A stretch of 64,000 nucleotides of DNA from Candidatus Bathyarchaeia archaeon (GTDB taxonomy: Archaea; Thermoproteota; Bathyarchaeia; Bathyarchaeales; Bathycorpusculaceae), in contig JBEKPG010000005.1 in assembly GCA_049520955.1 (NCBI GenBank), forward strand, positions 2,817 through 66,816, in the 5' to 3' direction. The notes under the pieces were generated by a model. The model saw nothing but the letters and a program-made list of their open reading frames with translations. It had not been told where the DNA came from and did not search any database. How positions within the stretch are numbered: the first letter of the stretch is position 1; each line of letters begins with the position of its first letter. The position numbers were made by a program, and so were the translations under genes. Positions 15,677-44,713 of the stretch are shown piece after piece.

Positions 15677-17218
15677 TTAACTTGGCTTGCCATTAAGATC
15701 TTCTGCGTTTTTTTTGTTTGCTTCTTGGTTTTTGTCTTTCGTTTTACGTTTTGGCATTTTTGGAAAAGAATTGTATAAAGCTGATGCTCGTGCTAGAATA
15801 ATTTTTCTGGTTTCAACTGTGACAGGTGACGTTGCAATTAGCTCGTCGAGTTTCTTTTTGTTTTCTTCTATTATTTTTGTGAATTCTGCATTGGATATTT
15901 TGCCTTTTAATTTTAGTTTTCTCACCTCTTCCATGTGCGAAGCAATTTCCTCAAATTGTTCGTCAATTTCTGTCTCAGATGTATTTTCGGTTTGCGGTAT
16001 TTTTTTCCTTACATAGCGGAATAGCAAAGGCACTTGGAACACAATTGAAATGAAAGCTACTCCGAGCACCATTGTGTTTATTGTATTAATATTTCCTTGA
16101 GAAACTACTGCGGATGTTGTTATTGTGGCCACCAGAGCTATGGACAAAGCGCCTCTGACCCCGCCAAGCATGGCGATGTTGCGCCAGACCCCTGATATTT
16201 TATCACCAAATTTATTGAACACGGCAAGTATTGGGTACACCGTTGCGGCTCTGGCTATGGTCACGGCGGCGTAAGCGGCCACGATTATCAGAACTGATTG
16301 GGAAAGAGCAACAATGTTCGTCTCGAACCCTATTATTAGAAATGCTATCGAGCTACCTAAGAAAGCTGCTATCTGCCAAAATGTGATAACAGCTTCTCTT
16401 GAAGCGGGTTCCAAGGCAGATCGAATCGTGAAGTTGCCAAAGTATAACCCTGACACGGCGACCGCTATTAGCCCTGAGGCGCCTATTCCTGTTGCCAACG
16501 CGTACGACCCGTACACCACAGCTACCGCCAAGATGGTTTCGGCAACTCTATCCGCTATCAAGCTTGTGAGGATTTCTCCTAGAAACGCAACTGCCAACCC
16601 AATTAAAATGCCTGCGCCAAGGGTGAAGCCGAAATTAAATATTATTTGGGTTACCGCGACCTTTTGAAGACCGACAGTTGAAAGGATTACAGTAAATAAG
16701 ACAATGCCAGTGGCGTCGTTGAATGCCGCTTCTGTATCAAGCAACGTAGATAGTTTAGAAGGAACTTTGACCCTTCGAAAAACCTCCAAAACCGTTACCG
16801 TGTCCGTTGGAGCAATCAGCGCTGCGAAAAGAAAAGAAACATACGGCGAAAGACCAACCACCCTCCACAAGATAAGGCCGCCAACAGAAGTCGCTATCAA
16901 AACGCCTACGGTTGCTAAGGCTAACGAAGGCTTTATCACAGCACGCAGATCGCTGGCGCGAAGGTGAATCATGGCTTCGAAAATCAATGGGGGAACAACG
17001 ACTCCCACGAAAAGACCGCCTCCTCCACCTTGAAGAAGTTGAGCACTGAGCGATCTTAATTGAGAAATCAAGTTCTCAAAAGAGCCTCCTTCAAGAGTAA
17101 AGGAAGAGGCGACCACAGTGATTACAACACCTGTTAAGACCAAAACCAAAGTGTACGGTATCCTAAGTTTTGTCGATAGGACCGCAGCTAAGAAAGCCAC
17201 AAGCAGGAACGCTGCCAC
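15677..17218 (-). CDS. CPA1/NhaP-type Na+/H+ antiporter
   Basis: PPLIFEA, IAPTDTV, LDTEAAFNDATGI, GGVRGALSIAL; the true start may be a few codons upstream. Confidence 0.92.
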   Translation of the reverse strand: MAAFLLVAFLAAVLSTKLRIPYTLVLVLTGVVITVVASSFTLEGGSFENLISQLRSLSAQLLQGGGGGLFVGVVVPPLIFEAMIHLRASDLRAVIKPSLALATVGVLIATSVGGLILWRVVGLSPYVSFLFAALIAPTDTVTVLEVFRRVKVPSKLSTLLDTEAAFNDATGIVLFTVILSTVGLQKVAVTQIIFNFGFTLGAGILIGLAVAFLGEILTSLIADRVAETILAVAVVYGSYALATGIGASGLIAVAVSGLYFGNFTIRSALEPASREAVITFWQIAAFLGSSIAFLIIGFETNIVALSQSVLIIVAAYAAVTIARAATVYPILAVFNKFGDKISGVWRNIAMLGGVRGALSIALVATITTSAVVSQGNINTINTMVLGVAFISIVFQVPLLFRYVRKKIPQTENTSETEIDEQFEEIASHMEEVRKLKLKGKISNAEFTKIIEENKKKLDELIATSPVTVETRKIILARASALYNSFPKMPKRKTKDKNQEANKKNAEDLNGKPS

Positions 17219-17448
17219 AATGAGTTCAATGCTTGGAACCAGAACAATCGCCTACCCTTTCGATGCAACTTTGGTTGAAGCTTGTTTTCTAAATCTCTAA
17301 AGCCCTTATTCAATCTGTCGAAGCAAACATAAAGACGTCTGACGGGTTTTCTTAGTATTCCATTTCGGGGTAAAGATTGGTTAGTACATTTATCGCCGTT
17401 AACCTTAACTTGGAATATGCGATAGTTTAGAATGAACGAGGAGAGGTT

Positions 17449-29639: not shown

Positions 29640-30125
29640 ATGAATGCTGTTGCAGATCAAGAAGTTGATGAGATAGCGCAAAAAATCATGACAGAAGTAG
29701 AACAGGCAAAATCGAAAGATCTGGCAGGCTCCGACGAAATGATAAAGATTCTCCACTTGACAAATACACATAGCGCCAAAGCATTGCTAGAACATGCCGA
29801 TGAAGCTCCTACAGAAAATGAACGAAACATAGGAAAGAAAGCAGTGGTGGAGGCATTGTTAGTTTCCACCTGGCATACAAGGTTGTACTTCATCATAAGA
29901 TCATTCATCATGGGGCTACTAGGCGCGCTTTTAACTCTTATTTTCGTATTAATATTTCACTCAATAACCCTAGCTTTGGACATCCCACTGGGTATCTTTT
30001 CATTCATATTCTCGCTATTTGTTTCTAGGCTGCTAGACGTGCAAATAGTAAAAGCCACAAAGGCTATAACAGATTACCTGAGCAATCATAAAAGCTTGAG
30101 AAACTTTATTCTTAACCACTTCTAA
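29640..30125 (+). CDS. Hypothetical membrane protein
   Basis: 161-aa ORF with two C-terminal TM helices. Confidence 0.7.
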   Translation: MNAVADQEVDEIAQKIMTEVEQAKSKDLAGSDEMIKILHLTNTHSAKALLEHADEAPTENERNIGKKAVVEALLVSTWHTRLYFIIRSFIMGLLGALLTLIFVLIFHSITLALDIPLGIFSFIFSLFVSRLLDVQIVKATKAITDYLSNHKSLRNFILNHF

Positions 30126-30164: not shown

Positions 30165-30575
30165 TCATAGGGCTCGCATTCGATTGTTTCTTGGATTATG
30201 TTCAATTTCCGCTATTCCTAAAGCTTCTAGGATTGGCGGTATATAATTTGCAAATCGCCCCCGCAGCCCCTTTTTGATACCGTACCATCCGCCCACGGGG
30301 TTTTTTGGTGACCTTGCCCAAGCTTCAACGGTTCCTTCCTCAGCTGGCTTCTGTTCGTCTGCGCTACCAAGCGGCATCCAATCTCCTTTGGCTTTCAACA
30401 TTTTATGGAGATCGTCCAAACAGCGAAGTTGGTATTTGAGTTCCGTTTTACCTACCCAGACCACGACTGTTGGCGGGTCAGCTGCTTCGTCGCGATATGC
30501 TTTGAATTCAGAAGTGCCGGGTGGAGTTTTAAGTAGCCAAGGATCATCCTTTGTTCCTTTTACTTTAATTGACAA
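30165..30575 (-). CDS. Conserved hypothetical protein (DUF6855-like, from recall)
   Basis: GTKDDPWLLKTPPGTSEF...NPVGGWYGIKKGLRGRFANYIPP...RNNRMRA. Confidence 0.7.
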   Translation of the reverse strand: MSIKVKGTKDDPWLLKTPPGTSEFKAYRDEAADPPTVVVWVGKTELKYQLRCLDDLHKMLKAKGDWMPLGSADEQKPAEEGTVEAWARSPKNPVGGWYGIKKGLRGRFANYIPPILEALGIAEIEHNPRNNRMRAL

Positions 30576-30725: not shown

Positions 30726-30812
30726 TGGCGCGGGATGTGGGATTTGAACCCACGCGGCCTTTCGACCACAGACTTAGCAGGCCTGCCCCCTACCAGGCTA
30801 GGGCAATCCCGC
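30726..30812 (-). tRNA. tRNA-Ser(GCT), CCA encoded, no intron
   Basis: Acceptor GCGGGAT/ATCCCGC, discriminator G + CCA, anticodon loop CT-GCT-AA, long variable arm, T-arm GTGGG-TTCAAAT-CCCAC. Confidence 0.95.
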
Positions 30813-30813
30813 A
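30790..30813. repeat. Direct repeat copy 1 (att-like; 5' end of tRNA-Ser)
   Basis: CTACCAGGCTAGGGCAATCCCGCA, identical to 43503-43526. Confidence 0.92.
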
Positions 30814-31339
30814 ATTGTACCCTAACTCATTATTTTCGCTTTTGTCTATCTTAGCTTTGATCTCAATAACCAATGCTGGTTAGTAGAGTTATTGAATTGG
30901 GTTATTTTTGTCTTTTGCGTCTAATGATACACACAGCTGCAGTTAGTAGAAGAATCACGATTTAAGCGCGCGTGTCTCATTTTTCCATGTTGGTTTTTTC
31001 TTAAATCTGCTGGATACACTGGGCAAAAAAGCTTAAAAATCTCTCATTTTACCAAAATAAGTGTTTTTTAGCCTTTTTAACCTATATAAAGCCAAACTAC
31101 ATAGGCACTTTTGAAACTAAAAATAATTCCTAGTTTTTTATTCTGTTATGTTGGGCTTTAAAACTTTGGCTTTAAGCAATGTTAACACCAAAACGACCAA
31201 CACATTATTACAACATTAACTAAGCGGTTTAACTAGTCTTTTTGGTGGTTCTAACAGGGTATTTTAATAAAAACAGCTAGGGGTTTAGTTAAAAAATAGG
31301 TCGGCTAAATTAAAGCTGTTATATGTCAAGGGGTAGAGG

Positions 31340-31483
31340 TTATTTTTGGCTTAATTCGTTATGCCATTTATCACAGCAATGGTTTATGAATCTAGGAATC
31401 ATGTCATTTGTAAGTTTGCATACGCAATAAGAAGCGTTATACTCTGAGCACGTTCCGCAACCACACTTAGCGCATCTATCCAT
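31340..31483 (-). CDS. Cys-rich microprotein (47 aa, 8 Cys)
   Basis: Hand translation MDRCAKCGCGTCSEYNASYCVCKLTNDMIPRFINHCCDKWHNELSQK. Confidence 0.5.
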   Translation of the reverse strand: MDRCAKCGCGTCSEYNASYCVCKLTNDMIPRFINHCCDKWHNELSQK

Positions 31484-31489
31484 TTTTAA

Positions 31490-31585
31490 TCAGAATCCCT
31501 GATGTTGGCAGTCTGTGCCAATGTGGTCGCATTCGTAGGTACCTAATTGAAAGTGGCTGCATCGCCTAAATTTTTTGCAAGTCAT
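31490..31585 (-). CDS. Cys/His-rich micropeptide (31 aa)
   Basis: Hand translation MTCKKFRRCSHFQLGTYECDHIGTDCQHQGF; GAGGAG upstream; in tandem with the 47-aa ORF. Confidence 0.4.
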   Translation of the reverse strand: MTCKKFRRCSHFQLGTYECDHIGTDCQHQGF

Positions 31586-31789
31586 AGTTATTTTGCCATC
31601 TCCTCAACCTTGACAAAGCGTTTTGGCGATTATATGCAATGTTCCGATTCTTGACACATATCAACCTTCAAACAACATTAGCACCTAATTATTTTAATAA
31701 AAAAAAGCCGCTAGAGTGGTTGTCCACGTGGAAGAGGCATGTCTAACACTCTAACGACTGCCACAAGGTTGAGGCTGTGACTGTCAAAT

Positions 31790-32326
31790 TTAGACGCAAA
31801 CTCCAAAACTTTCAATATTGCCATTGGTTGCATTGGTTTCAACTTTGCCGAAAATCAGGCGTGTACCTGTTGTTTTTACGATTGCTGTCGCTTGTTCTGC
31901 CGTAATTTTTTCTATTTTGCCAATTTGCTTGCATGTGTAATTTTCATTACTCTGATTTAAAGCCACAAAACAGCAAACCCCACCACCAGCACAGTTAAAA
32001 TCACGAATAAACAGTTTTCCATCGCTTTCAATAAACCATAAATTATCAGTGACATCTGGACGCATAGTATAACTTAAGACCATGTGGAACCATATTTTTT
32101 CGATTGAATTCCATGCGTTTTTGTCTTCGACATCTTTACTAAAAAGTATGTGGGCTATAGCTGACCTTTTAAAATTCATCTCTTCAGGGGTTTTAAGTAC
32201 CGTTGACTCTTCATTAAAGGCACTCCAACTTTTTAGAGACTTATCGAAGCGTGACACAAAGGTTTTTTCTTCAAATCTGTAGCCTTCAGGTTTATGCATC
32301 CACCGAGCGCGCGCGCTTTCTTTCAA
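31790..32326 (-). CDS. Hypothetical protein; 5' end lies on a (GC)5 junction
   Basis: 178-aa ORF; 'SARAR' near the N-terminus is the translated GCGCGCGCGC run, so it may be truncated or chimeric. Confidence 0.5.
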   Translation of the reverse strand: MKESARARWMHKPEGYRFEEKTFVSRFDKSLKSWSAFNEESTVLKTPEEMNFKRSAIAHILFSKDVEDKNAWNSIEKIWFHMVLSYTMRPDVTDNLWFIESDGKLFIRDFNCAGGGVCCFVALNQSNENYTCKQIGKIEKITAEQATAIVKTTGTRLIFGKVETNATNGNIESFGVCV

Positions 32327-32424
32327 CTTTTAGAAGTAAATATTTGACGCTGATTCATGTTGGTGAAGTCTTTGGGTTTGCCGTCTCTAAGTGCGGCAAA
32401 AACGCGTTCATCAAATAAGCCCAT
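32323..32424 (-). pseudogene. N-terminal fragment of a winged-helix protein
   Basis: MGLFDERVFAALRDGKPKDFT then stops after 33 aa; resembles the first helix of a wHTH family (from recall). Confidence 0.35.
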
Positions 32425-32599
32425 TGCGAGTTATAATAAGCAAAATCAGACTTGTAACCATTTTTAACCATTTTCGGGACAAGCCAGCGCGCTGAAATTG
32501 CCGCGCTACAGTATATAGACATTCAGATACGTTTATTTCTGAAATGGTGGCTAAAATACATCAGTAGCTTAAAAGAAACTCACATGGCGATGTTTTTTC

Positions 32600-33355
32600 A
32601 TGAGTAAAGAGCCGTCTGCCTCAGAACCAATGCTTGGCGCTCGGGCTTATCACTTCCTTGAGATGCGTCGATTATTCTCAGAAGGGTTAGGAACTTTCTT
32701 TCTTGTTTTAGTAGCTGTTGGAGGAGGTGTTGTAAATACTGCAACACACGGAGCCATTAGCCAAGTTGCCCTTGTTATTGCGCCTGCTTTAATGGTTATG
32801 GCAATCATTCTTTTTATGGGAAAGGTTTCTGGGGCTCATCTAAATCCTGCAGTAACGATTGCTTTTTCTGCTCGAGGCGATTTCCCTTGGCGCCGAGCCC
32901 CTGGATACATCTTAGCTCAAATTATAGGCGCTGTTATAGCATGTTCTTTTCTTGCCACCATATTTGGTGTGAATGGAACTTTTGGTTCCACTCAACCAGG
33001 AGCTGGCTTTAGTGGTTTGCAAGCAGTCTTGATAGAGTTCATTCTTACTCTTGGACTTGTCAGCGTAATTCTCGGAACCGCTTCTAAAGCTCAAAACGTC
33101 GGACCGTTGTCTGCCCTTGCAGTTGGCGGCTATATTGCGTTGGCTGGACTTTGGGCAGCGCCCATATCTGGAGCATCAATGAACCCAGCGCGCTCATTTG
33201 CCCCTGACCTTTTTCTTCTTAGCTTTAGTACCTATTGGATATATTTAGCAGGGCCTATAGCAGGTGCATTGCTTGCTGTGTTTTTTGCTTATCTTCTGCG
33301 TGGACATAACAGGGACGAAACAGCGATTGAGGCCGCACAAGGTGTCCTAAAATAA
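32600..33355 (+). CDS. Aquaporin / MIP channel
   Basis: Two NPA motifs: SGAHLNPAVT and GASMNPARS; 6 TM. Confidence 0.95.
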   Translation: MSKEPSASEPMLGARAYHFLEMRRLFSEGLGTFFLVLVAVGGGVVNTATHGAISQVALVIAPALMVMAIILFMGKVSGAHLNPAVTIAFSARGDFPWRRAPGYILAQIIGAVIACSFLATIFGVNGTFGSTQPGAGFSGLQAVLIEFILTLGLVSVILGTASKAQNVGPLSALAVGGYIALAGLWAAPISGASMNPARSFAPDLFLLSFSTYWIYLAGPIAGALLAVFFAYLLRGHNRDETAIEAAQGVLK

Positions 33356-33423
33356 CCGACCCATTGGAGGCTAACTATTGTCACATGAATTGATAAGGGT
33401 GAACAAAAAAGGAGGTCTAAAAA

Positions 33424-34837
33424 ATTACCGAACCTATACAGCCAAATAGAGGTCTTAGTCGTCAGGAGCGTTGGCAAAAAGGGAAAGAACTAAGTGTCAA
33501 GATTCCATGGAAGAGCCACAGTGAGTGGAAACGTCCAAGTAATTTTCAAGACCCCATCAGCCTAATTCAACAGCATGACAAAGGGCGATTATCGTTTTTG
33601 CTGCCTATTAAATATGGGCGCATGGCAGCTTCAGCTTTTGCTTATCTTAGGGGTTCAGCCGCGGTCATGGCAGCCGACCTTAGAAGTACTCCAGTCACTG
33701 GCATAAAGACAATGTTGTGCGGCGACGCTCACTTATACAACTTCGGCATCTTTGCGTCGCCCGAGCGCAAACTAGTCTTTGACATAACTGATTTTGATGA
33801 ATGTTACCCTGGTCCGTGGGGAATGGGACCTCAAACGATTGGCCGCCAGTGCAGTCATTGCGGGGAGAGAAAACGGGTTTAAACCTGAAGATAATCGTGA
33901 ACTAGCCAAGCATGTTGCCAAAAAGTATCGTAAGGCAATAACAACATTTGCGAGCATGCTTACTTTAGACGTGTGGTATTCCTATGTAGATGCTGAGAGG
34001 CTCTTGAAAGCATTTCATAATTCTAAAAAAGAGTCGAAAATTTTGGAAAAAGCCATCAAGAAGGCTCGTACTAGAACAGAGGAACAATCACTTGAGAAGT
34101 ACACCGAAATTGTAGATGGTCAGCGACAATTTGTTAATCATCCACCGTTGATGGTTCGTTTAACCGACGTTCCTGAGAGTAATGCTGTGGCAGAGAAAGC
34201 CCAAGTGTTAAGAAATGATCTGGAAAAAGCCTGGCTTGAGTATGTCAGCAGTGTTGAAATAAATCGTCGCGTGTTGCTGGGTCGTTATCATCTTGTTGAT
34301 ACTGCTTTAAGAGTTGTCGGAGTGGGCAGTGTGGGAACTCGTTGCTTCGTAGCTTTGCTGGAAGCTAACTCAATTGATGATGAAATTGTGCTGCAGCAAA
34401 AGGAGGCTGGACCTTCGGTATTGGAACGATACTTAACGCAACGAGAATTTGTCAATCATGCAGATCGTGTGGTGATAGGAGAGCGGTTAATGCAGTCGAC
34501 AAGCGATATCTTTTTGGGATGGAGTTGTGGTTTTGCTTCTTCCGGACGTGATTATTATTGGCGCCAGCTGAGAGATATGAAAGGTTCCGTTGATGTTTCT
34601 CTGTTGGGCGTGAAAGGTTTTAAGGATTATCTTGCGTGCTGCAGCTATTGTTTGGCGCTGGGTCATGCTCGTTCGGGAGATGTTGCTGGGATTTCAGGGT
34701 ATCTGGATAATGGCAAACCATTTGACGAGGCGATTGCAAACTTTAGCGTTTCCTACGCAGAACAAACGGAGCACGATTATCACGCTCTGGTGGCTGCAAT
34801 CAAGGCTGGTCGTATTGTTGCTAAGAAAGGCGTTTGA
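33424..34837 (+). pseudogene. DUF2252-family protein, split by a +1 frameshift and lacking a canonical start
   Basis: KYGRMAASAFAYLRGSAAVMAADL, CGDAHLYNFG, RVVGVGSVGTRC, YWRQLRDMKGS; extra G in run 33818-33821 breaks PWEWDLKRL; frame open from ATT 33424 after GGAGGT. Could be a sequencing error. Confidence 0.8.
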
Positions 34838-35286
34838 TTAAGGTCAACAGTTATCTTAGTCCCTAGCTGTCACCGGCGATTCAAAGAAACGAGTTGATGT
34901 CCATCGTTACCTGTTCAATCTCTATGTAGAATAGTCTGTATGTTTTTTGTATTTACGACTTTTGATCTAAATGCTTCCTTAATTAGCGTTCATAGATAAT
35001 AGATATTTTTTAATTTGAAGCTATATTTTTGCGCCAAATTTTGGTCGAGTGCTATCGAAAGCGAACAAATCTTTCTTGCTTCTTACAGTCCTTCATATTC
35101 GAAAAGGTAACTTTTTCTTATCTATAGTTCAAGCTCTTCTCCTGACTATTGAGGAGGAAAATGTACTTAAGTACTGCCAATGTAGGAACGATAGCAGAGG
35201 ATAATCAAAACGCGGCACGCTATTTATAGTTGTTACATTTTAAGACAGTAGAAAAAGTTAAATCCCTCAATATTCCTCAGTGAATT

Positions 35287-35898
35287 ATGAATTCTACAAC
35301 TCTTATCGAAACAGGATTTACCGAATGGTTCCCGCTGAAAACGTTAACATTCTCAAATTTGCCTCCAAACAAAGACTGCGTCATCATAATAGTGGATAAG
35401 GAACTTTCAGGAAAGCCAGAATCTGATATTCTATATATTGGACGCACAAAAAGATCCGTCAAAAGGATACTGGGCGGATATTTGGCAGGGTATGGCGGAA
35501 AAAAGACAAAGAAGATCAACCAGATGCTTTTCGACGAAGGTTACATTGAAAATGCCGCTATAAGCTGGATCCTAACTGACAAACCAAGAATCATGCAAAA
35601 AGAATTGCTCGCCAAATTCAAAGAAGCTAATGGTAAATTTCCAGTCTGGAACGCCAAAAAGAAACTCAATGTTAAGCCCAAAAAAACCCCAGTTCCCAAA
35701 CCAAAAGCCGCTGCTCCGAGAGTTAAAGTCAGACCGATAACAAAATCCGTTCCGCGCGCGCGCCCAAAAATTGTTTCAACAAAGAGACCTGCGGCAAAGA
35801 CTAAAACCTCAACTAAAACCGAGACAGCAAGCAAAGGGGAAACTGCCGTAGAAACGCCAGAAAAGGCAAAACTTTCAGACACTGAAATGGCAACTTAA
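35287..35898 (+). CDS. GIY-YIG-like domain with Lys/Pro/Ala-rich tail
   Basis: ILYIGRT..R...LLAKF...G.FPVWN followed by a KKTPVPKPKAAAPRVK... basic tail. Confidence 0.6.
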   Translation: MNSTTLIETGFTEWFPLKTLTFSNLPPNKDCVIIIVDKELSGKPESDILYIGRTKRSVKRILGGYLAGYGGKKTKKINQMLFDEGYIENAAISWILTDKPRIMQKELLAKFKEANGKFPVWNAKKKLNVKPKKTPVPKPKAAAPRVKVRPITKSVPRARPKIVSTKRPAAKTKTSTKTETASKGETAVETPEKAKLSDTEMAT

Positions 35899-36267
35899 AA
35901 CTACAGATTTCAGCCAACTTCTTTCTCTCCCTTTTCCTTTGAGTAGTGAACCTCATGTTTTTTACAAGAGACTTTTTTTTCGAACAACACTATCCTTATT
36001 TTGTTGTTGGTTAGTAATTATAAATCAATCTTGGTGGATTTTTCCTTAGAGGGTTTATCCTAATTGTTCGACTTTTGATTGATGGAGTAGCTATTATTAG
36101 TCAGCGTGACCTATTCTCAATGAGGTTGTTTCAGATGTCGATGGATTCAGAAGATTTTAAGGTGCTGCCGCTCTCTTTAAGGCAATGGCTTGTTGTTTGT
36201 TGGTGGGGAATAGCAGTCACACATGTTTAATAAAATCGCAGAGGCACTAGTCTGTTAGTGAAATTTT

Positions 36268-36432
36268 ATGAGTGGAGAAGAAGTTAAAGGTAAACTTAAA
36301 AAGGATGAAGGCAAGATTCGCGTAGGCGCGGGTAAAATTACTGGCAACACAGGTCAAATAATTAAGGGCGAAGCTGAGAAAGTAAAAGGGAAAATCGAAG
36401 AAGACGTAGGCAAAGCCAAAAGAAAGCTCTAA
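36268..36432 (+). CDS. CsbD-family general stress protein (54 aa, absent from ORF track)
   Basis: Hand translation MSGEEVKGKLKKDEGKIRVGAGKITGNTGQIIKGEAEKVKGKIEEDVGKAKRKL. Confidence 0.8.
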   Translation: MSGEEVKGKLKKDEGKIRVGAGKITGNTGQIIKGEAEKVKGKIEEDVGKAKRKL

Positions 36433-36738
36433 CAAAACACCAGCTGTTCAACGCCTCCATAATAAGCCGAAATAAGTTTTCAAGAAAACGGAAAATACCA
36501 CAGCAACTATTAAGCGGATAGTTTGCTCTTTTTTTCCATCTAACGCCAATCTGAGCTTATCAGAAACTATACTGTGAATACAACGCCGCCGAACGCACGC
36601 GCGCAAAAGTTCGGAAGAGGTAAAGGTAGCGGTGTAAGGACAGGGATGGGTCATTATGGTGGGAAGTTACTGTTGAACCATGTTGACAAAAAAGCTGGAG
36701 AATCAACAACTATTGAATAAATTAGGGCGTTTTGAGTT

Positions 36739-36978
36739 TTACATTATCTTCTTGGGGGTTTGATGCTCAGTTTCCAAGTGCATGGTTAATTCCTCTTTAG
36801 TTTTGAAAACTTTACCACATATTTGGCAAGTAACCTTGTTTGGCGTTGGATTATCCATTGGAGGAAGCGAAGGCTGCTGATCTGGGGATTCAAAAGAGCC
36901 ATCTGGTGGGGAGGGTGCAATCAAATCATTGAATGATTCATTTGGCTTCTTTTCGTAGGGAAAATCAGGCTCAGTCAA
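36739..36978 (-). CDS. Small C2H2 zinc-finger protein
   Basis: CQICGKVFKTKEELTMHLETEH (C-x2-C-x12-H-x4-H) after a Pro-rich N-terminus. Confidence 0.8.
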   Translation of the reverse strand: MTEPDFPYEKKPNESFNDLIAPSPPDGSFESPDQQPSLPPMDNPTPNKVTCQICGKVFKTKEELTMHLETEHQTPKKIM

Positions 36979-37668
36979 AATCTTACCTATATTACAAGGG
37001 GTTTATGCTTTTCTTAAGCATTTGTGACTGTCTAACGACAATAACGTAAAAGTAGGTCACAGTTAAGCAAACAGTTTACTCGTTTCTTTCTCTCATTTTT
37101 TTACGAGAGTTTTCTTACAATGTAAGTTGAGCCTTTCTTCTCTCTGTCGTGCTCACGACTGCGTACGCTCGCGAATGCACGCACGCCCACGCATGCCTCC
37201 GTGAATCGTGTCTGTCCTACTGTCAGTCACTCTGTCAGTCTCACAGTCGCACCCGCAACAAAACAAAAACAAACAGATAGGGTAAGCTAAAGATTCGTTC
37301 GAATCTTTCTTTCAGCTTGCCTTATATCAAGTTAAAAAGAAATCTCAAAACAACGATAAGAACTATTATTAATACTACTACTACAATAGCGGACCAGAGC
37401 CAACTACCTAAACCACCTTTTTTATTATGCAAAAACCTCATTTGTCCAATCACCTCTTGTATAACTGACTTATTGTCTTTCAATTCTACTTAACTATTTG
37501 TTACTGTAGAACCACAACTACAAGCGCTCGCTCCAAATACTATTCAGATTGGTGTTATGCGGAAGTGCGCAAGCTAGTTTTCAGCGCGCGCGTGACCGTT
37601 TCCATTCCTCTGTGAGGATACCATGGAAACCCTTTGATATAATCCTTAGGATTATCTGATCCAAAGTG

Positions 37669-37857
37669 GCACATCAACAATCGCCTAGCAGCCGCAACAG
37701 TGGCGATTTTCTTACCCCTCTTCTCCGCTATCCGATTATACGCTTTCGTAATAGCGGTATCGTACTTGTGAGCATGCGTCTGAGCCGCCTCAACCATCAC
37801 CCAACGCAGCCACCTGCTACCTTCCTTAGTGATGCTTCCATGCCAAACAGTCTTTCC
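37669..37857 (-). pseudogene. IS110-family transposase C-terminal fragment
   Basis: GKTVWHGSITKEGSRWLRWVMVEAAQTH...RGKKIATVAAARRLL; starts exactly at the (GC)n run 37857-37866. Confidence 0.8.
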
Positions 37858-37943
37858 GCGCGCGCGAAGGCTTATTAGCTTCCGCTTTCGAATCTGAAGA
37901 AGCTTTTTATTTTAGCCTAAACTATTTTTTAATAGGTCTCGGT

Positions 37944-38840
37944 TTGAATCTTGGTACCCACATCTTTTTTGCTGGTGTAGTCACAGCTATTCTCACGGGC
38001 AACCCTTACTTCACTCTTTTAGCGGGAATAGGCAGTTTCATCCCCGACCTGGATCGAGAATACCTCTTGGTGAGCCCAAAGGCTTTTCGAGAGGAACAGT
38101 TTCATCGGGCGCTTTTCCATAACCTGCTTTTTCTATCTGGGCTGTTTTTTGTGAATGTTTGGCTTGCACTAGGCGCATTTCTACATAGCTTCATAGATTC
38201 CTTCACTACAGAGAAAGACAAGGGAGTCGAGTGGCTTTTTCCATTTTCTAGAATGGTGAAACGTGGTCGTTACACGTTGGCTGCAAAGTCAAAAGACGGA
38301 GCGTGTAAACTGGAGTTGGTTGATCAGAAGCCGCCTGATCGAGTCTGCTTTATCAATGAAGATTCTCCGGAGACAACCCAGCTTTCTGATCCTGATTTGA
38401 AGGAGTCAAGAGCTGTTCCATGGCGTAGGACCTATGGACCTGCGACGAACGGGCAAATGTTCGACAAGTGGCTCGCATTAGCCTCTTTTTCGATGCTAAT
38501 TCTTTATGCTGTGTTGAACCCTGGTTTTGCAATGGCTGGCAAAAACCTCATCCTCTCAACCCAAATCATTCCGCCAATGAGCCTTTTAACGGGCATCGTA
38601 CTGGTTTTTCTCGGAGGTTGGCTTAAAAAGAACAAAAGAAACAGAAAAGGGTACCTCACCCTCTTCGCGGCTGGTGGTGTGTTCACAGTTTTGTCAGCTG
38701 TACTGTCGGTTGGCGGAGTTTCGGGTTATGTGTTTCTTTTAAGTCCTACTTTTATTGCTGTCGGCTGCTTGGTTTTGTTTGCTGAAGCGCTTTTTATTTG
38801 GCGGCTTAGCACATACGGCGGAAAAAAAGCCCTAGTTTAA
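37944..38840 (+). CDS. Membrane metal-dependent hydrolase (YdjM-like)
   Basis: TH, GSFIPDLD, HRALFHNL, GAFLHSFIDSFT, GVEWLFPF; C-terminal TM helices. Confidence 0.85.
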   Translation: MNLGTHIFFAGVVTAILTGNPYFTLLAGIGSFIPDLDREYLLVSPKAFREEQFHRALFHNLLFLSGLFFVNVWLALGAFLHSFIDSFTTEKDKGVEWLFPFSRMVKRGRYTLAAKSKDGACKLELVDQKPPDRVCFINEDSPETTQLSDPDLKESRAVPWRRTYGPATNGQMFDKWLALASFSMLILYAVLNPGFAMAGKNLILSTQIIPPMSLLTGIVLVFLGGWLKKNKRNRKGYLTLFAAGGVFTVLSAVLSVGGVSGYVFLLSPTFIAVGCLVLFAEALFIWRLSTYGGKKALV

Positions 38841-39099
38841 GTAAGAAGCGCGCGCTTCAGGTGAAAACAAAATTCGTTTGTGACGCGTTTCAAAGCATGG
38901 AATCTGAATGAAAACAGAAAATAGGCTAAAGAATCAAAAGGCGAATTATTGCAACCTTTGACCAATTTAGGAACACCCACGCGCGCTACCTTTCAAAAAG
39001 ATCTCAAATGATCCCTACGATGTCCTACAAAGAACACCATCAACATTACTTAATGGCTAGACGTACTATCGTCTGACTCTCTCGCGATTAAATTGGTCT

Positions 39100-39297
39100 C
39101 TATTTTTTCTCTTGCTTTATTTTTTCCCTTAACTGATTGATAGACGTAACACGTTGCTCTTTAAGGACCGCCTCAACTGTTTTATCGGAACGATAACCAA
39201 AATGTTCCTGAATATCAGGAGCAACATTTCCTATATGTGCATCTTCACGAATTTGTCTAGGATCCCCTGTCTTGCCTATTTGTCCTGGCATTTTCAA
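39100..39297 (-). CDS. Small hypothetical protein
   Basis: 65-aa charged ORF downstream of and co-oriented with the TPS/TPP gene. Confidence 0.5.
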   Translation of the reverse strand: MKMPGQIGKTGDPRQIREDAHIGNVAPDIQEHFGYRSDKTVEAVLKEQRVTSINQLREKIKQEKK

Positions 39298-39447
39298 AAC
39301 TCCTTAAAGTAACTATAAACCAACAATTGTTACATAACCTTTTCTCTCATTTGTTCTCGGGTGCGCCACCAGATTCCATCCCTGAGGCTACAGTGTTAGC
39401 GGCAAGTACTGTTCCATCAGGTTTAGTTAAAAGTGGCGCTTTAGTGC

Positions 39448-41652
39448 TTATTGTTTACGGCAGGTTTTCTCGTTTTCAATGCAGTTCCATAGTAATGGTA
39501 AAACTTCTTTTTGTGAGAAAAGACTGTATCGTGCTTTGCTTGGAGTTACTCCCACTTTGATTGAGTATGCTTCTTTGGGAAGTGCAACAAAGAGGTCTTC
39601 GTCGGTTTTGTCGTCTCCAATTGCAAGAATGAAAGTGTATTGTTGTTTTGAAAGCCAATTCTGTGCTGCTCGTCCTTTATTAACTATAGAGCTTTTGATT
39701 TCGATTACTTTGTTTCCATCCATTACTTCAAGGTTAAGGTTTGAAATTGAAGATAGAATATTATCTTTGAGTTCTTTAGCGCGTAAAGAACCAAGGGTAG
39801 GTTCGGTTGCACGGTAATGCCAAGCTAAAGAGAAATCTTTCTCTTCCACGAAACTGCCAGGTGTTCGGTCAGCGTACATCTCAAGAATTGGAAGAATTTC
39901 TTTTTTCCATGCGTCTGAAAGTTGTTCAAGAGCTTTCCAGTCTCCTGAACCTTCTTTAATCCATGCACCATGCTCTGCGACTAATCCAACTTTTAGGGAT
40001 CTGAACCACTCGTCAAACGTTTTTTTGTCCCTGCCGCTGATAAGTACAACTTCATTAGAAGATGATTTACTAAGCTTCCTTAGCATTTTTGCTACATCGT
40101 CTGTAGGTACTGCTTTTTGCGGTTTAGTAGCGAAAGGCACTAATGTACCGTCATAATCAAGTAGAATTAGCCTTCTTTTGCTATTACTGTAGCTTTCGAC
40201 AAGTTCCGTTCGATTAGCTGATGTCATAACTTGTTGATAACTTTCTTGTTGTTTGACATAAGCGTCATTCAAGCGGTTGAGAAAATCGTCTGCCCACCGT
40301 TTAACATTATAACGTGACAATCGTTTTTGCATAATACGATTTCGTTTTATTTGTTCGTCTATAGGCATAGCAAGCGCTGTCTCCAACGCTTCAATTATGT
40401 CTTCTTGATCGTTGGGGTTAACGATAATTGCCTCTCCAAGCTCTTGCGCCGCACCTGTCATTTCCGAAAGAATTAATGCTCCTAAACCATTGATTTTAGT
40501 TGCTATGAACTCTTTGGCCATAAGGTTCATGCCATCGCGTAATGGTGTCACTAAACCAACGTCGGCAACTCCATACAGGGCTACTAATGTTTCAAAAGGA
40601 AGGAATCTTGAGAAATAGCTAACTGGCGTCCAATCTGTGGTGCCATATTTTCCGTTTATTCGACCTACTAATTCATCAATTTGTTTCTTCAATGTTTGGT
40701 ATTGACTTACGTTAATCCGTGAAGGAACTGCGACCAATATGAAGGAGACTTTTCCACGATATTCTGGTTTTCTCTCAATCAGGGCGTCGAAGGCTTCGAG
40801 TCGAAGTGGGATTCCTTTAGTATAGTCGAGGCGGTCAAAAGAAAGAATTATTTTTCGCTTTCCAATCTTTCGTAAAGTGTGTGCCATCTCTTTTTGAACA
40901 AGCGGGTTGTTGCCTGCATCTGAAAATCGTTGATAATCGATACCCATTGGAAAGATGTCAACTTTTGTTTGCCTTGATCCTATTTGAATTTCTCCAAGGT
41001 AATTTTCGTTTCCTAAAATGCGACGGACACATGAAAGAAAATGAAAAACATAATCGTAAGTGTGGAAACCAATTAGGTTTGCGCCAAGTAAGCCTTCAAG
41101 TATTTCTTCTCGCCAAGGAAGAAGTCTAAAAATTTCATGCGATGGAAAAGGGATATGATGGAAATATCCTATCTTAGCATCAGGTAAATGTTCCCGTATC
41201 ATTTGTGGAAGCAGCATCAGTTGATAATCATGAATCCAAATAGTGTCATTAGATTTAGCGACCTTAATTATTTCGTCACAAAATTTTTGGTTGACTTTTT
41301 GGTAAGTCTCCCAATTTTTAAGTTCATATGTTGCATAGAGGTTAAAATAATGAAATAATGGCCATATAGTATTATTGGAGAAGCCTTCATAATAGTATTT
41401 TATTTCATACGGTGTGAGAAAAACTGGATGATACTTTTCATTGCTTAATAAATCAACAATTTGTTTTCTCTCTTCCACCTGCTTTTGATTAAGGTAGATT
41501 CCGGGCCAACCAATCCAAAGGCTGTTACCTAATTTATGAATAGAATTAACACCTGTTGCCAATCCTCCTGTGGTAGGTTGAATTTGAAGTGTAGAATTCT
41601 TTTTAGATATTTGAATCGGTAACCTATTTGAAACAAGTAAAATTCTATCCAT
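39448..41652 (-). CDS. tpsp: Bifunctional trehalose-6-phosphate synthase/phosphatase (OtsA-OtsB fusion)
   Basis: GT20 motifs GGLATG, WIHDYQL, HIPFP, DRLDYTKGI, DGMNL; HAD motifs DYDGTL, SGR, GDDKTDED. Confidence 0.95.
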   Translation of the reverse strand: MDRILLVSNRLPIQISKKNSTLQIQPTTGGLATGVNSIHKLGNSLWIGWPGIYLNQKQVEERKQIVDLLSNEKYHPVFLTPYEIKYYYEGFSNNTIWPLFHYFNLYATYELKNWETYQKVNQKFCDEIIKVAKSNDTIWIHDYQLMLLPQMIREHLPDAKIGYFHHIPFPSHEIFRLLPWREEILEGLLGANLIGFHTYDYVFHFLSCVRRILGNENYLGEIQIGSRQTKVDIFPMGIDYQRFSDAGNNPLVQKEMAHTLRKIGKRKIILSFDRLDYTKGIPLRLEAFDALIERKPEYRGKVSFILVAVPSRINVSQYQTLKKQIDELVGRINGKYGTTDWTPVSYFSRFLPFETLVALYGVADVGLVTPLRDGMNLMAKEFIATKINGLGALILSEMTGAAQELGEAIIVNPNDQEDIIEALETALAMPIDEQIKRNRIMQKRLSRYNVKRWADDFLNRLNDAYVKQQESYQQVMTSANRTELVESYSNSKRRLILLDYDGTLVPFATKPQKAVPTDDVAKMLRKLSKSSSNEVVLISGRDKKTFDEWFRSLKVGLVAEHGAWIKEGSGDWKALEQLSDAWKKEILPILEMYADRTPGSFVEEKDFSLAWHYRATEPTLGSLRAKELKDNILSSISNLNLEVMDGNKVIEIKSSIVNKGRAAQNWLSKQQYTFILAIGDDKTDEDLFVALPKEAYSIKVGVTPSKARYSLFSQKEVLPLLWNCIENEKTCRKQ

Positions 41653-41868
41653 AAAAAATTCGGCTCGGAATGATCATAATAGTGAATCCTCTTGAATAAG
41701 TTTAATGGCTAACTTCATTAGAATGCTTTGTGGTTTTGGGGATTAAAACTTAGCGCGCATGACTGTTCCGAAATTGGTCTAAAATGGTTAAAACTCTCCT
41801 TTTGCAAAAAGAGTTTAAGGGTGAAGTGCTCTTGGCCGTGTTTTTTGGATGGGAAACCGCTGATTTTT

Positions 41869-42120
41869 GCGCACGCGAAACGCTTCAAGGTTAAGGGCGA
41901 TCCGAGGCTGGTGAAGCTATATAGGCTGAGAATGGCTCTTGAAAGAAACTTCAAGGCTGGGAAGCTGGAGCTTATGATGGAGAACCTGCGTTGGAGAGGA
42001 GTAGCTAAGGTGTGGATGCACGCGGTCCTATGCTTCGCGTGCATATACGCCGTGGCAATCACAGCCTACAAAATAGGCAGACCAGAACTAGCCAACAGCA
42101 TCGCAACGTTCACATATTAA
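41869..42120 (+). pseudogene. DDE transposase (IS4/IS5-like) C-terminal fragment
   Basis: LYRLRMALERNF (Y-x2-R-x3-E-R) followed by LRWRGVAKV..HA.L; no N-terminus; bracketed by GCGCGC at 41753 and 42179. Confidence 0.65.
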
Positions 42121-42342
42121 ACGCTGAAAAAGACTCCATTTGCGAAATTAAGCCAAGAAAGAATTAATGACCACTTATGCGCGCCTTATCTGAGATCTTG
42201 CATTTTAAGGAATTAATAAGCTACTTTTCTTTCTTAAGTTGATTAGGACTAATTTCACCCTGGTAATTTAGCCTCTCTTGCATTGACGGAACTGCTCATT
42301 TAGTGGATGGTAACTAGCTCTTGTGGAGAGATCAGCTTCTTT

Positions 42343-42441
42343 CTAAGAAGGGTTGTACCATTCCCAGAGTTCATCAACAGTTTTCTGGGAGCACCCAGAG
42401 TTGACGAGTAATGTCTTGAAATGAATCTTTTCTTTGCTCAT
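42343..42441 (-). CDS. Micro-ORF (32 aa), possibly truncated by a TAG
   Basis: Hand translation MSKEKIHFKTLLVNSGCSQKTVDELWEWYNPS. Confidence 0.3.
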   Translation of the reverse strand: MSKEKIHFKTLLVNSGCSQKTVDELWEWYNPS

Positions 42442-42894
42442 ATGTTACACCTGTTAAAATCTGTAATATTAATATACAATAATCGCAGAATTAAGTATGT
42501 GTGACTGTGAGTCCACAGCAACATTCTGATAGTTGTGTCTGCGCTAATCTGTTCTCAGCATTAATTTACAAGAGAAAAACTAAAAAGAAATAATAGAACT
42601 CAATTAGTTCCTTATTTTTCTAATTTATATTTCTAAAATTATTAAAAATCTTAGAAACCACTTCTTTTATTTTGTTTTGTTTGAAGAGAAAAGGAAAGCC
42701 ATAGTTAACAAGGAGTAGACTGGGGGAAAGTGTTCCCCTTATCCTTGTGAGAAGCTCTCCTTTCTCCTCAAATAAGGAAGTCACCCTCTAAGGCTTAAAA
42801 AGTATATTTCAGAATTGGGATTATGTCAGAAAATCTATTCTTAGATTAATTTTGGCTTAACTTTTAAGTGCTAACTATGCAAATAAGTTACTTC

Positions 42895-43172
42895 GCGCGC
42901 ATACCACCTCTCCAAACTTGAAAGAAGCGGGACTGCTAAAAAAAGAGAACGGCAACTATGTCATCAACAAAGTAATTTTGACAGACTGCATAAAAGTCAA
43001 CCGCTTTCTCATTCGCACGCGCGCTTCGGTTTTACTTCTTATAACAGAATTAACTGTACTAAGACCGCCTCTTGTGACTAGCTTTTACTTCTTTGCCACC
43101 GTTGGTACTTTCATTTGCGCCCTTGCCTTCAGCTATGAGACCGCAAAAGTATGGAGCAAAGGCGGATTTTAA
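42895..43172 (+). pseudogene. Fragment of a wHTH + TM protein
   Basis: AYHLSKLE / EAGLLKKENGNY (frameshifted wing) then two hydrophobic helices; begins at GCGCGC 42895 and has an internal GCGCGC at 43019. Confidence 0.55.
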
Positions 43173-43502
43173 GATCGATTAGTCTTCTCCGCTCTCCGCG
43201 TCATCCTGTTCCTGAAGTTAAATGTTTTTCGGCGCGTACGAACAGTTTGGAGATCGATCATAGCTTCTATGTTGCAAATCTGTCATAAGGACGAACCTTC
43301 CGAGTAGATCAATCGGGCAACTCAGTCATAGTCAGCGTGAAACGAATTTGAAGGTTTCATCAAAAGTTTTTTTGAGTTTTCTAACAAATTTTCGTCTCCC
43401 ATAGGAATCAAAGGCGACAGCAAATGGAACAATTCGCCGCGTTCGAAACTGTGAAAATCGTCGTCAATCTTTTGACCGCAGAAGGAATTGTAGCGCGGCG
43501 CG

Positions 43503-43526
43503 CTACCAGGCTAGGGCAATCCCGCA
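43503..43526. repeat. Direct repeat copy 2 (att-like; tRNA-Ser 5' fragment)
   Basis: CTACCAGGCTAGGGCAATCCCGCA, identical to 30790-30813; the tRNA sequence stops after the D-loop GGTAG. Confidence 0.92.
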
Positions 43527-43760
43527 CATGTAACAATGATCATTTTGGAACCTGCCAAAGTCTGGGTTATAGTGTAGAGTGTGGCGCTCGGATATTTTTG
43601 CTTTCTGGATAGCGAAAATGTAAATCACACAATCTAACCTAAAAGATTTTAGAACCCTGATTAAAGTACGACTTTTGCCTCTTATTGTATTACAGTTTGA
43701 ACGAACGATTAGCAGTCTCATTTTAACAATCAGTTTTTGTTTCTTTGAATCAACACGCTT

Positions 43761-43901
43761 TCATAAAATCGAGAATTCTTTTGTTATTTTGAATTTGGTT
43801 TTGCATTCATCGCATATGTAGGCTTCGATTTGAAAAAATCTGTTCTCAAATGACTTTTGAGGTTTCAGAATTATCTTATGACAGTTAGGACATTTAGCCA
43901 C
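43761..43901 (-). CDS. Zinc-ribbon microprotein (46 aa)
   Basis: GTG start; MAKCPNCHKIILKPQKSFENRFFQIEAYICDECKTKFKITKEFSIL. Confidence 0.55.
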   Translation of the reverse strand: MAKCPNCHKIILKPQKSFENRFFQIEAYICDECKTKFKITKEFSIL

Positions 43902-44281: not shown

Positions 44282-44713
44282 ATGGTGGGAAAATTATCTA
44301 AAGCTGATGTTGCATTCATGATGAAGTTACCGGTGTGTAGACTCGCAACAACAACTGAAGAGTGTGAGCCCGTGGTGAGGCCTGTTTGGCCCGTTTTTGA
44401 CGGCGTAAATGTTTTTATAGCGACGGACCCTGACACGCCAAAGTTGGAGCACATAGAGGGCAACCCTGAGGTATCGTTGGTTTTTGATGATTATGACAGA
44501 GACAACTGGTCTAATATCAAAGGCATCCGCGTGCAAGGAGAAGCAACCGTCATGTGGAAAGGCAAAGAGTACCGTTACGCGCATGAGCTTCTTAAAGAAA
44601 AATATCCTGAATACCAAACTGAGGAAGGTGGCTGGAAAGAAGGCGACATACCGATAATCAAGATATTGCCAACATCTTTTACGAAATGGGCACAAGGCGA
44701 ATGGAAAAAATAG
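44282..44713 (+). CDS. Pyridoxamine 5'-phosphate oxidase-like (PPOX class) protein
   Basis: RLAT..P.VRPVW...TPKLEHIEGNPEVSLVFDDY..W..GIRVQGEA; KYPEY. Confidence 0.88.
   Translation: MVGKLSKADVAFMMKLPVCRLATTTEECEPVVRPVWPVFDGVNVFIATDPDTPKLEHIEGNPEVSLVFDDYDRDNWSNIKGIRVQGEATVMWKGKEYRYAHELLKEKYPEYQTEEGGWKEGDIPIIKILPTSFTKWAQGEWKK

Follow-up and report, generated by a model that had tools for sequence, protein, structure and literature searches.

Here, we describe a genomic island of 12.7 kb that lies in the 5′ part of a tRNA-Ser(GCT) gene of a Candidatus Bathyarchaeia archaeon, in a 64,000-nt stretch of contig JBEKPG010000005.1 (positions 2,817 to 66,816 of the forward strand; assembly GCA_049520955.1) that we call "the window" throughout. 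What its ends, interior, and relatives look like makes it probable that the island (30814-43502) is a decayed and most likely immobile remnant of an integrative element belonging to a family of tyrosine recombinases for which we coined the name "Int444". The island itself is ordinary; the value of the case lies in the family picture around it, namely the layout of the element's attachment site (attP), the use of one site by two families, and the displacement of a conserved block upstream of the tRNA. The window was analysed with ARAGORN, Rfam, and Pfam; L numbers refer to loci or contigs of related lineages, and X numbers to metagenome runs.

The Repeat, the tRNA Gene, and the Insertion

Five features define the site:

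30726-30812, minus strand: intact tRNA-Ser(GCT) (ARAGORN; Rfam tRNA, 54.9 bits)
30790-30813: core of the left attachment site (attL), the left copy of a 24-bp repeat, covering tRNA bases 1-23 and one upstream base
43503-43526: core of the right attachment site (attR), the right copy of the repeat, a bare tRNA 5′ stub
about 43552-43611, minus strand: native upstream block of tRNA-Ser(GCT), −27 to −85 in the tRNA sense, from a 28-lineage alignment
44282-44713, plus strand: PNPOx-like gene (Pfam), the ancestral neighbour on the 5′ side of the tRNA

A preliminary description of this DNA had reported an exact 24-bp repeat over the 5′ end of the tRNA plus one upstream base, and its coordinates were reproduced: the 24-mer CTACCAGGCTAGGGCAATCCCGCA matches exactly at 30790-30813 and 43503-43526. 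An exact repeat of this length is expected by chance about 7e-6 times in 64 kb (some 2e9 position pairs multiplied by 4^-24), and the two copies are alike over 35 nt at 89% identity. The same description had placed the intact tRNA at the left border and a bare stub at the right. This holds too, as ARAGORN finds no other tRNA in the 64 kb, and neither ARAGORN nor Rfam detects a tRNA or a tRNA half in the region of the stub (43350-43900).

Dozens of metagenome contigs from Bathyarchaeia have the same tRNA-Ser(GCT) sequence. A search of metagenomes for the 24-mer gave 91 contigs, nearly all with an identical tRNA and with highly varied DNA upstream of it. In seven loci (L085, L095, L108, L111, L112, L129, and L167), the PNPOx-like gene stands 150-550 nt from the intact tRNA, and two of these (L167 and L108) are syntenic with 45.6-53.6 kb of the window over more than 9 kb. 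The native upstream block (ACAGAAAGCAAAAATATCCGAGCGCCACAnTCTACAnTGTAACCCAGACTTTAGCA) is strongly conserved in about 28 lineages (loci L085-L171), where it precedes the tRNA; in the window, it precedes the stub. Its approximately 60 nt are nearly invariant and contain AAAGCAAAAATAT as well as the repeat ACAnTCTACAnT, whose two variable bases covary. The block was also considered as a structured RNA, and this was ruled out, there being no conserved fold and no match in Rfam. It is probably the original promoter region or the site of a regulator, now 12.7 kb away from the tRNA.

Judged from these relatives, what lies between the two repeat copies was inserted into the 5′ part of the tRNA, as had been proposed: the relatives join the tRNA directly to what is here the right flank. 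The further claim that the element supplied new DNA upstream of the tRNA stands as well, with the conserved native block now adjoining the stub. The predicted empty site was recovered in part, in that many related lineages have the tRNA joined to the native block and the PNPOx-like gene, none of them being this strain.

The alternative that nothing was inserted, the right copy being the stub of a split or permuted tRNA or the product of a local duplication, can call on the repeat itself and on nothing more. A split or permuted tRNA is rejected because there is no tRNA half at the stub and the native upstream block precedes it. The junction of tRNA and right flank in the relatives, together with a left end that is the arm of a mobile element (below), speaks against either version, and we regard the alternative as refuted, with a negligible residual probability.

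The Left End and the Int444 Family

Int444 is a non-split tyrosine recombinase (PF00589) of 444-456 aa, with 396 relatives at E≤1e-20. Elements that carry it are common in peat Bathyarchaeia, and scans of IMG/VR with the 24-mer and with Int444 gave no matches. In L110, L163, L172-L174, and L176, its gene (int) begins about 66 nt inside a tRNA-Ser 5′ stub and reads into the element, and L177-L181 have an un-recombined attP beside the gene. Read in the tRNA sense, this attP consists of a P arm (..GAAAGTGAGTTAGGGGATAAT), a core of about 24 nt copied from the tRNA 5′ end, a P′ arm (GGTAACTT..ATTATACCCTAACTC), and then int. The two arms bear inverted GTTAGGGTA motifs. The P-arm motif lies left of the core in the attP of L177, L179, and L181, and L110, L163, L172, and L174 have its inverse in the interval from stub to int.

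One end of the island belongs to this layout:

30814-30923: P arm of an Int444-family attP, a conserved element end

In the tRNA sense, the left end of the island reads ..GCGAAAATAATGAGTTAGGGTACAAT, then the core, then the remaining tRNA, which is the arrangement of the Int444 P arm; the P arm of the family (..GCGAAAAAGTGAGTTAGGGTAYAAT) directly adjoins the intact tRNA. Its first 15 nt (30814-30828, ATTGTACCCTAACTC) are the inverse of the GTTAGGGTACA motif in the Int444 P′ arm. Over its full length, it shares 92.5%, 85%, and 88% identity with L103, L136, and L159, respectively, each time beside the same tRNA; beyond it there is no similarity, and the cargo differs. In L110 and L163, the identity to the tRNA spans 26 nt and ends no more than 2 nt from the boundary of the 24-nt repeat in the window.

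The cargo of Int444 elements in relatives (L172-L181) consists mostly of defence genes. The integrase often has an N6/N4 methyltransferase as a near neighbour in these loci, and other cargo includes a set of DUF1156 methylase, DUF499, and SNF2 helicase genes, clusters containing DndE, and MmeI-type enzymes. In L179, a complete CRISPR-Cas locus abuts the attP.

A Right End Without P′ Arm or Integrase

The other end has none of the family's landmarks:

42185-43502: right end free of open reading frames (ORFs), where relatives have the P′ arm and the integrase gene

These 1.3 kb hold no ORF and have no similarity to any of the sequences compared that Pfam, tblastn, or tblastx could detect. The P′ arm (GGTAACTT..TATACCCTAAC) is missing at the stub, where attR is followed by CGCGCCGCGCTACAATTCC, and its motif occurs nowhere in the window except at 30816. 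Nor does the window hold an integrase of about 445 aa (PF00589) some 66 nt inside the stub, where relatives have theirs.

That the island has no integrase ORF, as the preliminary description had it, is borne out by Pfam, tblastn, and a family profile. Pfam recognises no integrase among the ORFs of the island and gives no matches in six-frame translations of 30814-31800, 38840-39450, and 41650-43502; tblastn with both integrase families that use this site finds none in the window; and a hidden Markov model (HMM) built from 100 Int444 relatives reaches a best E-value of 4 against six-frame fragments of the 64 kb. A degenerate integrase in the ORF-free ends was considered and rejected, as six-frame Pfam, tblastn, tblastx, and the family HMM were all negative. 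The label of an integrase-less element needs to be qualified accordingly: the absence is real, and the P arm marks a decayed member of an integrase-bearing family, not a special integrase-less kind of element. We also rejected a casposon or a DDE transposon, since the repeat is made up of tRNA sequence, Cas1 is absent, and the sole trace of a transposase is a truncated insertion sequence (IS) in the interior.

From these ends, a history can be proposed. In the intact element, a copy of the initial 24-26 nt of tRNA-Ser(GCT) would have stood between the P and P′ arms of attP, and the arm homology points to an Int444-type enzyme as the one that recombined this attP with the same bases of the tRNA gene. 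The element's copy of those bases would have restored the tRNA, which placed the P arm in front of it, and the original 5′ end with the native upstream block would have remained as a stub beside the P′ arm and int. The P arm and both 24-bp cores survived, the P′ arm and int presumably being lost at a later stage, and the interior would have gathered IS5-like insertions, deletions, and pseudogenes as the stress cargo stayed intact.

How the loss came about is a matter of speculation. Run X3 has a variant without 42157-43502 (joint 42156 to 43503), in which the 1.35-kb right-end deletion is replaced by AGCGCGCGCGC, and in the window a GCGCGC tract at 43498 abuts attR. An IS-associated deletion of the P′ arm and int is proposed here, speculatively, because GC-alternating tracts abut the core in both variants.

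A Second Integrase Family at the Same tRNA

Relatives also harbour SSV-type elements at this site. Contig Ga0326728_10000013 (L139, 1993-10399; L098, 430-453) has three att copies that bound tandem elements of this type, and in L139 an intact 330-aa ORF (Pfam Phage_integr_3, Archaeal phage integrase) is re-formed across the middle copy. The att sequence is part of the reading frame in this integrase and encodes the peptide ..VRDCPSLVGGRPA.., and Int(N) remnants adjoin the tRNA in many related loci. The SSV-type integrase and Int444 have no pairwise similarity. In the relatives, the 5′ part of tRNA-Ser(GCT) serves as the target of two unrelated integrase families. The SSV-type integrase reads in the direction of the tRNA, and its promoter could therefore transcribe the tRNA.

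The island might be such a "suicidal" element, its integrase split into two border fragments on integration, as others that occupy the same tRNA 5′ half do (the L139 ORF and the Int(N) remnants). In the window, the matching frame is closed by stops 5 codons upstream of attL, the one through attR ends after about 32 codons, the att-encoded peptide is the sole match, and neither border holds an Int(N) or Int(C) fragment. We consider this origin very improbable and effectively refuted. The length of the repeat also bears on the choice of family. The SSV-type family shares 40 nt with the tRNA 5′ half, versus 24 nt in the window, and we favour Int444 because 24 nt fits the 26 nt of L110 and L163, not 40 nt.

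Population Data and Mobility

The left junction of the island is present in many peat metagenomes. Unique parts of the island have the same depth as both flanks (about 10, 10, and 7 in X1, X2, and X3, respectively), and an independent 107-kb contig of the Joint Genome Institute (JGI), Ga0439239_0000298, carries 22600-43355 of the window at 99.99% identity and with the same structure. The island is fixed in this population, as the equal depth and the JGI contig indicate. Excision or circle joints of this strain are absent from the assembled contigs of eight metagenomes. Rearrangements within the island do occur: in addition to the X3 deletion, X1 and X3 have an inversion joint between 37307 and 41748.

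The preliminary description had left two fates for an element without integrase, grounded or mobilised in trans. Grounded is the one we favour as most likely for the island as sequenced, because int and one arm are missing. The opposite case is that of a mobile satellite, whose two cores an Int444 from another element in the same cell would recombine. The cores are identical, the P arm is intact and conserved, Int444 elements are as common in peat Bathyarchaeia as noted above, and other elements occur at the same tRNA in the same metagenomes (X6 has a loose end at 30813). Set against this, attR is without the P′ arm and its inverted motif, the 64 kb contain no Int444 gene, the assembled contigs lack excision or circle joints at a depth equal to that of the flanks, and the pseudogenes and IS debris suggest a long residence. 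A satellite that still moves seems to us improbable.

A composite origin is a possibility of more substance, although we would not bet on it. It supposes at least two tandem elements, possibly of different families, that were collapsed by deletion or IS activity, so that the two ends of the island differ in origin. Tandem arrays exist at this site (the three att copies of Ga0326728_10000013), at least two integrase families use it, the right end is unlike the Int444 P′ arms, and population variants have deletions and an inversion inside the island. Against it, the island has no third, internal att copy and no integrase fragment, and the right end matches no known family. Please note that a composite overlaps with the remnant of an Int444 element and does not exclude it.

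It is important to state what weighs against an Int444 remnant. Just about 110 bp tie the island to the family, the integrase and the N6/N4 methyltransferase adjacent to it being gone. The attR junction is without the two G's that trail the core in the tRNA and in the Int444 attP, so that the right boundary may stem from a secondary deletion or rearrangement, or from another element. The exact empty site of this strain was not found: a contig from X4 that joins 30789 to 43503 was rejected as an excision product, as its tRNA 3′ flank differs and its match to the upstream block spans only about 100 nt, which assigns it to a relative. The search for an Int444 gene covered the 64-kb window, and joints were sought in assembled contigs, which hide rare excision products. 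With these points taken into account, an Int444 remnant is still the origin that we hold to be probable.

Transcription of the tRNA

On this arrangement, transcription of the tRNA must start in island DNA or read through from the island. It is reasonable to infer that it depends on island DNA, because the conserved native upstream block has stayed with the stub. The P arm holds no convincing archaeal TATA box or B recognition element (BRE) at a workable distance; AAAGCGAAAATAAT is found at −30 to −16 of the tRNA, which we take to be too close by the usual spacing of promoters. The RNA runs cover the tRNA body only, which is common to many species.

A bolder idea, which we put forward as unlikely, is that island DNA drives tRNA-Ser(GCT), so that the dependence of the cell (an addiction) would keep a dead relic fixed, the cores and P arm would still allow its capture or mobilisation by a co-resident Int444, and two unrelated families would have converged on the same 24-40 nt.

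Island Content and Decay

The interior of the island, from the P arm to the ORF-free right end, contains the following:

30924-31789: ORF-free DNA with one GCGCGC tract (30966); six-frame Pfam search, 0 matches
31790-32326, minus strand: ORF of 178 aa, no family match
32434-32493: solo terminal fragment of an IS5-like IS, an inverted copy of 41752-41805, ending in GCGCGC
32600-33355, plus strand: MIP-family channel, aquaporin or glycerol facilitator (PF00230, E 7e-49)
33598-34837, plus strand: DUF2252 gene with a frameshift near 33819, as two ORFs that cover profile positions 6-78 and 79-392
35287-35898, plus strand: ORF of 203 aa with a weak GIY-YIG-like N-terminus (PF01541, E 0.048, below cut-off) and a Lys/Pro-rich tail
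36268-36432, plus strand: CsbD-like small stress protein (PF05532, E 6.5e-9, below the curated cut-off)
36739-36978, minus strand: small C2H2 zinc-finger protein (PF00096, E 1e-6)
37555-37800, minus strand: gene fragment or fragments with a weak Pirin-like match (Pfam Pirin, E 1.6e-4, below cut-off) and a tblastx match in L009
37944-38840, plus strand: YdjM-like membrane protein (PF04307, E 2e-10)
39448-41652, minus strand: fused trehalose-6-phosphate synthase/phosphatase (PF00982, E 3e-157; PF02358, E 6e-56)
41753-42184: internally deleted IS5-like element of 432 bp (DDE_Tnp_1 C-terminus, E 0.003)

Intact genes are those for the MIP channel, the trehalose fusion, and the YdjM-like, C2H2, and CsbD-like proteins, in addition to two ORFs without a clear family. 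The channel, the trehalose-phosphate synthase/phosphatase, and the CsbD-like protein look like genes for water or osmotic stress, a function that we deduce from their families. An exact-protein look-up of the trehalose synthase gave no match, and those of the YdjM-like and MIP proteins returned the same island only.

Other parts are in decay. Some metagenome contigs are one base shorter at 33818, near the frameshift in the DUF2252 gene. The N-terminal part of 37555-37800 reads, in our view, like the end of an IS110-type transposase. The 432-bp element retains the last 80 or so transposase codons, has GCGCGC at the start of both ends, and shares 87% identity with the end of a full-length copy in L141, whose transposase has the domains DDE_Tnp_1 and DUF772. 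The solo fragment at 32434-32493 has multi-copy depth, metagenome contigs break at both of its ends (32434 and 32493), and a further solo end of the same element lies near 38986. A 54-nt inverted repeat that precedes the MIP and trehalose genes was considered as a shared regulatory element and rejected as such, since it is this IS5-like end.

The tract GCGCGC has 23 overlapping matches in the window, of which 22 are in the island (15 tracts, 30966-43503) and the other is at 29923. Related Bathyarchaeia DNA has about one per 20-40 kb, which makes the island about 50-fold enriched. All seven occurrences of GCGCGCGC in the window also fall in the island, against an expectation of 0.58. Several of the GCGCGC tracts are IS5-like termini (terminal inverted repeat GCGCGCATAAGTGKTCATTAATT), and five ends share GCGCGCGTG.

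The Other Side of the tRNA

On the 3′ side of the tRNA, the island has this neighbour:

30165-30575: DUF6855 gene, left neighbour

Synteny through this gene was tried as a route to the empty site and was of no use, as in relatives it never stands beside tRNA-Ser and yielded no empty site; its matches did assign the window to Bathyarchaeia metagenome-assembled genomes (MAGs) from peat and soil. Homologues of its protein in Bathyarchaeia, Thermoplasmata, Nitrososphaerales, Actinomycetota, Chloroflexota, and others (L001-L080) share 70-92% identity, several copies per MAG are possible, and in four Bathyarchaeia loci the gene adjoins tRNA-Pro. From this distribution, it looks like a widely transferred small gene.

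The homologue of 15699-17337 of the window in L170 (7305-8939) lies about 450 nt from the 3′ end of the tRNA. The 13.4 kb at 17.3-30.7 kb of the window may thus be a second variable region on the tRNA's other side; no repeat of the tRNA 3′ end was found in it. More Int444-like integrase genes stand 3′ of the same tRNA in L088 (6147-8863 and 11232-12065) and L146, and by these sequences integration seems to have hotspots on either side of tRNA-Ser(GCT).

Significance and Comparison With Known Systems

The loci described here document that the 5′ part of tRNA-Ser(GCT) is a hotspot of integration in uncultured peat Bathyarchaeia. They give the attP layout of an abundant family, that is, P arm, 24-26-nt copy of the tRNA, P′ arm, and int, and they illustrate the decay of such elements into integrase-less islands that retain cargo for water stress. 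Targeting of the 5′ part separates a tRNA from its native upstream block, and these loci are therefore natural tests of how archaeal tRNAs acquire new promoters. For annotation, we recommend that islands of this kind be called from att repeats and arm motifs, and not from integrase genes alone.

Integration in the 5′-distal part of tRNA genes is considerably rarer than in the 3′-distal part (Krupovic et al. 2019, PMC6563490), and the preliminary description, which had called 5′ targeting the less common mode, agrees with this. The same study describes CalSub-E1, a cryptic element in the 5′-distal region of tRNA-Ser in Ca. Caldiarchaeum subterraneum (PMC6563490). The island in the window resembles it in being integrated at the 5′ part of a tRNA-Ser; CalSub-E1 retains an integrase and replication genes, whereas the island has neither.

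Split, or "suicidal", SSV-type integrases are well described (Badel et al. 2020, PMC7253208). Those in the relatives follow the pattern, with the tRNA-Ser 5′ sequence inside the reading frame, splitting on integration, and tandem arrays, and the island differs from them in being without Int(N) and Int(C) fragments.

Archaeal elements with a non-split tyrosine recombinase are often called pNOB8-type; their int lies beside one att site and stays intact after integration. A review of such elements is available (PMC8371274). This pattern of a tRNA target, flanking direct repeats, and an intact int fits the Int444 relatives L110, L163, and L172-L181. The copy in the window departs from it in two respects: it is without the integrase and one arm, and its target is the 5′, not the 3′, part of the tRNA.

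In bacteria, cis-mobilizable elements (CIMEs) and other integrase-less islands consist of cargo flanked by att sites, without a recombination module, and derive by deletion from elements that had an integrase. CIMEs keep both att sites functional and can be mobilised by a related element, whereas the island described here is without one of its arms.

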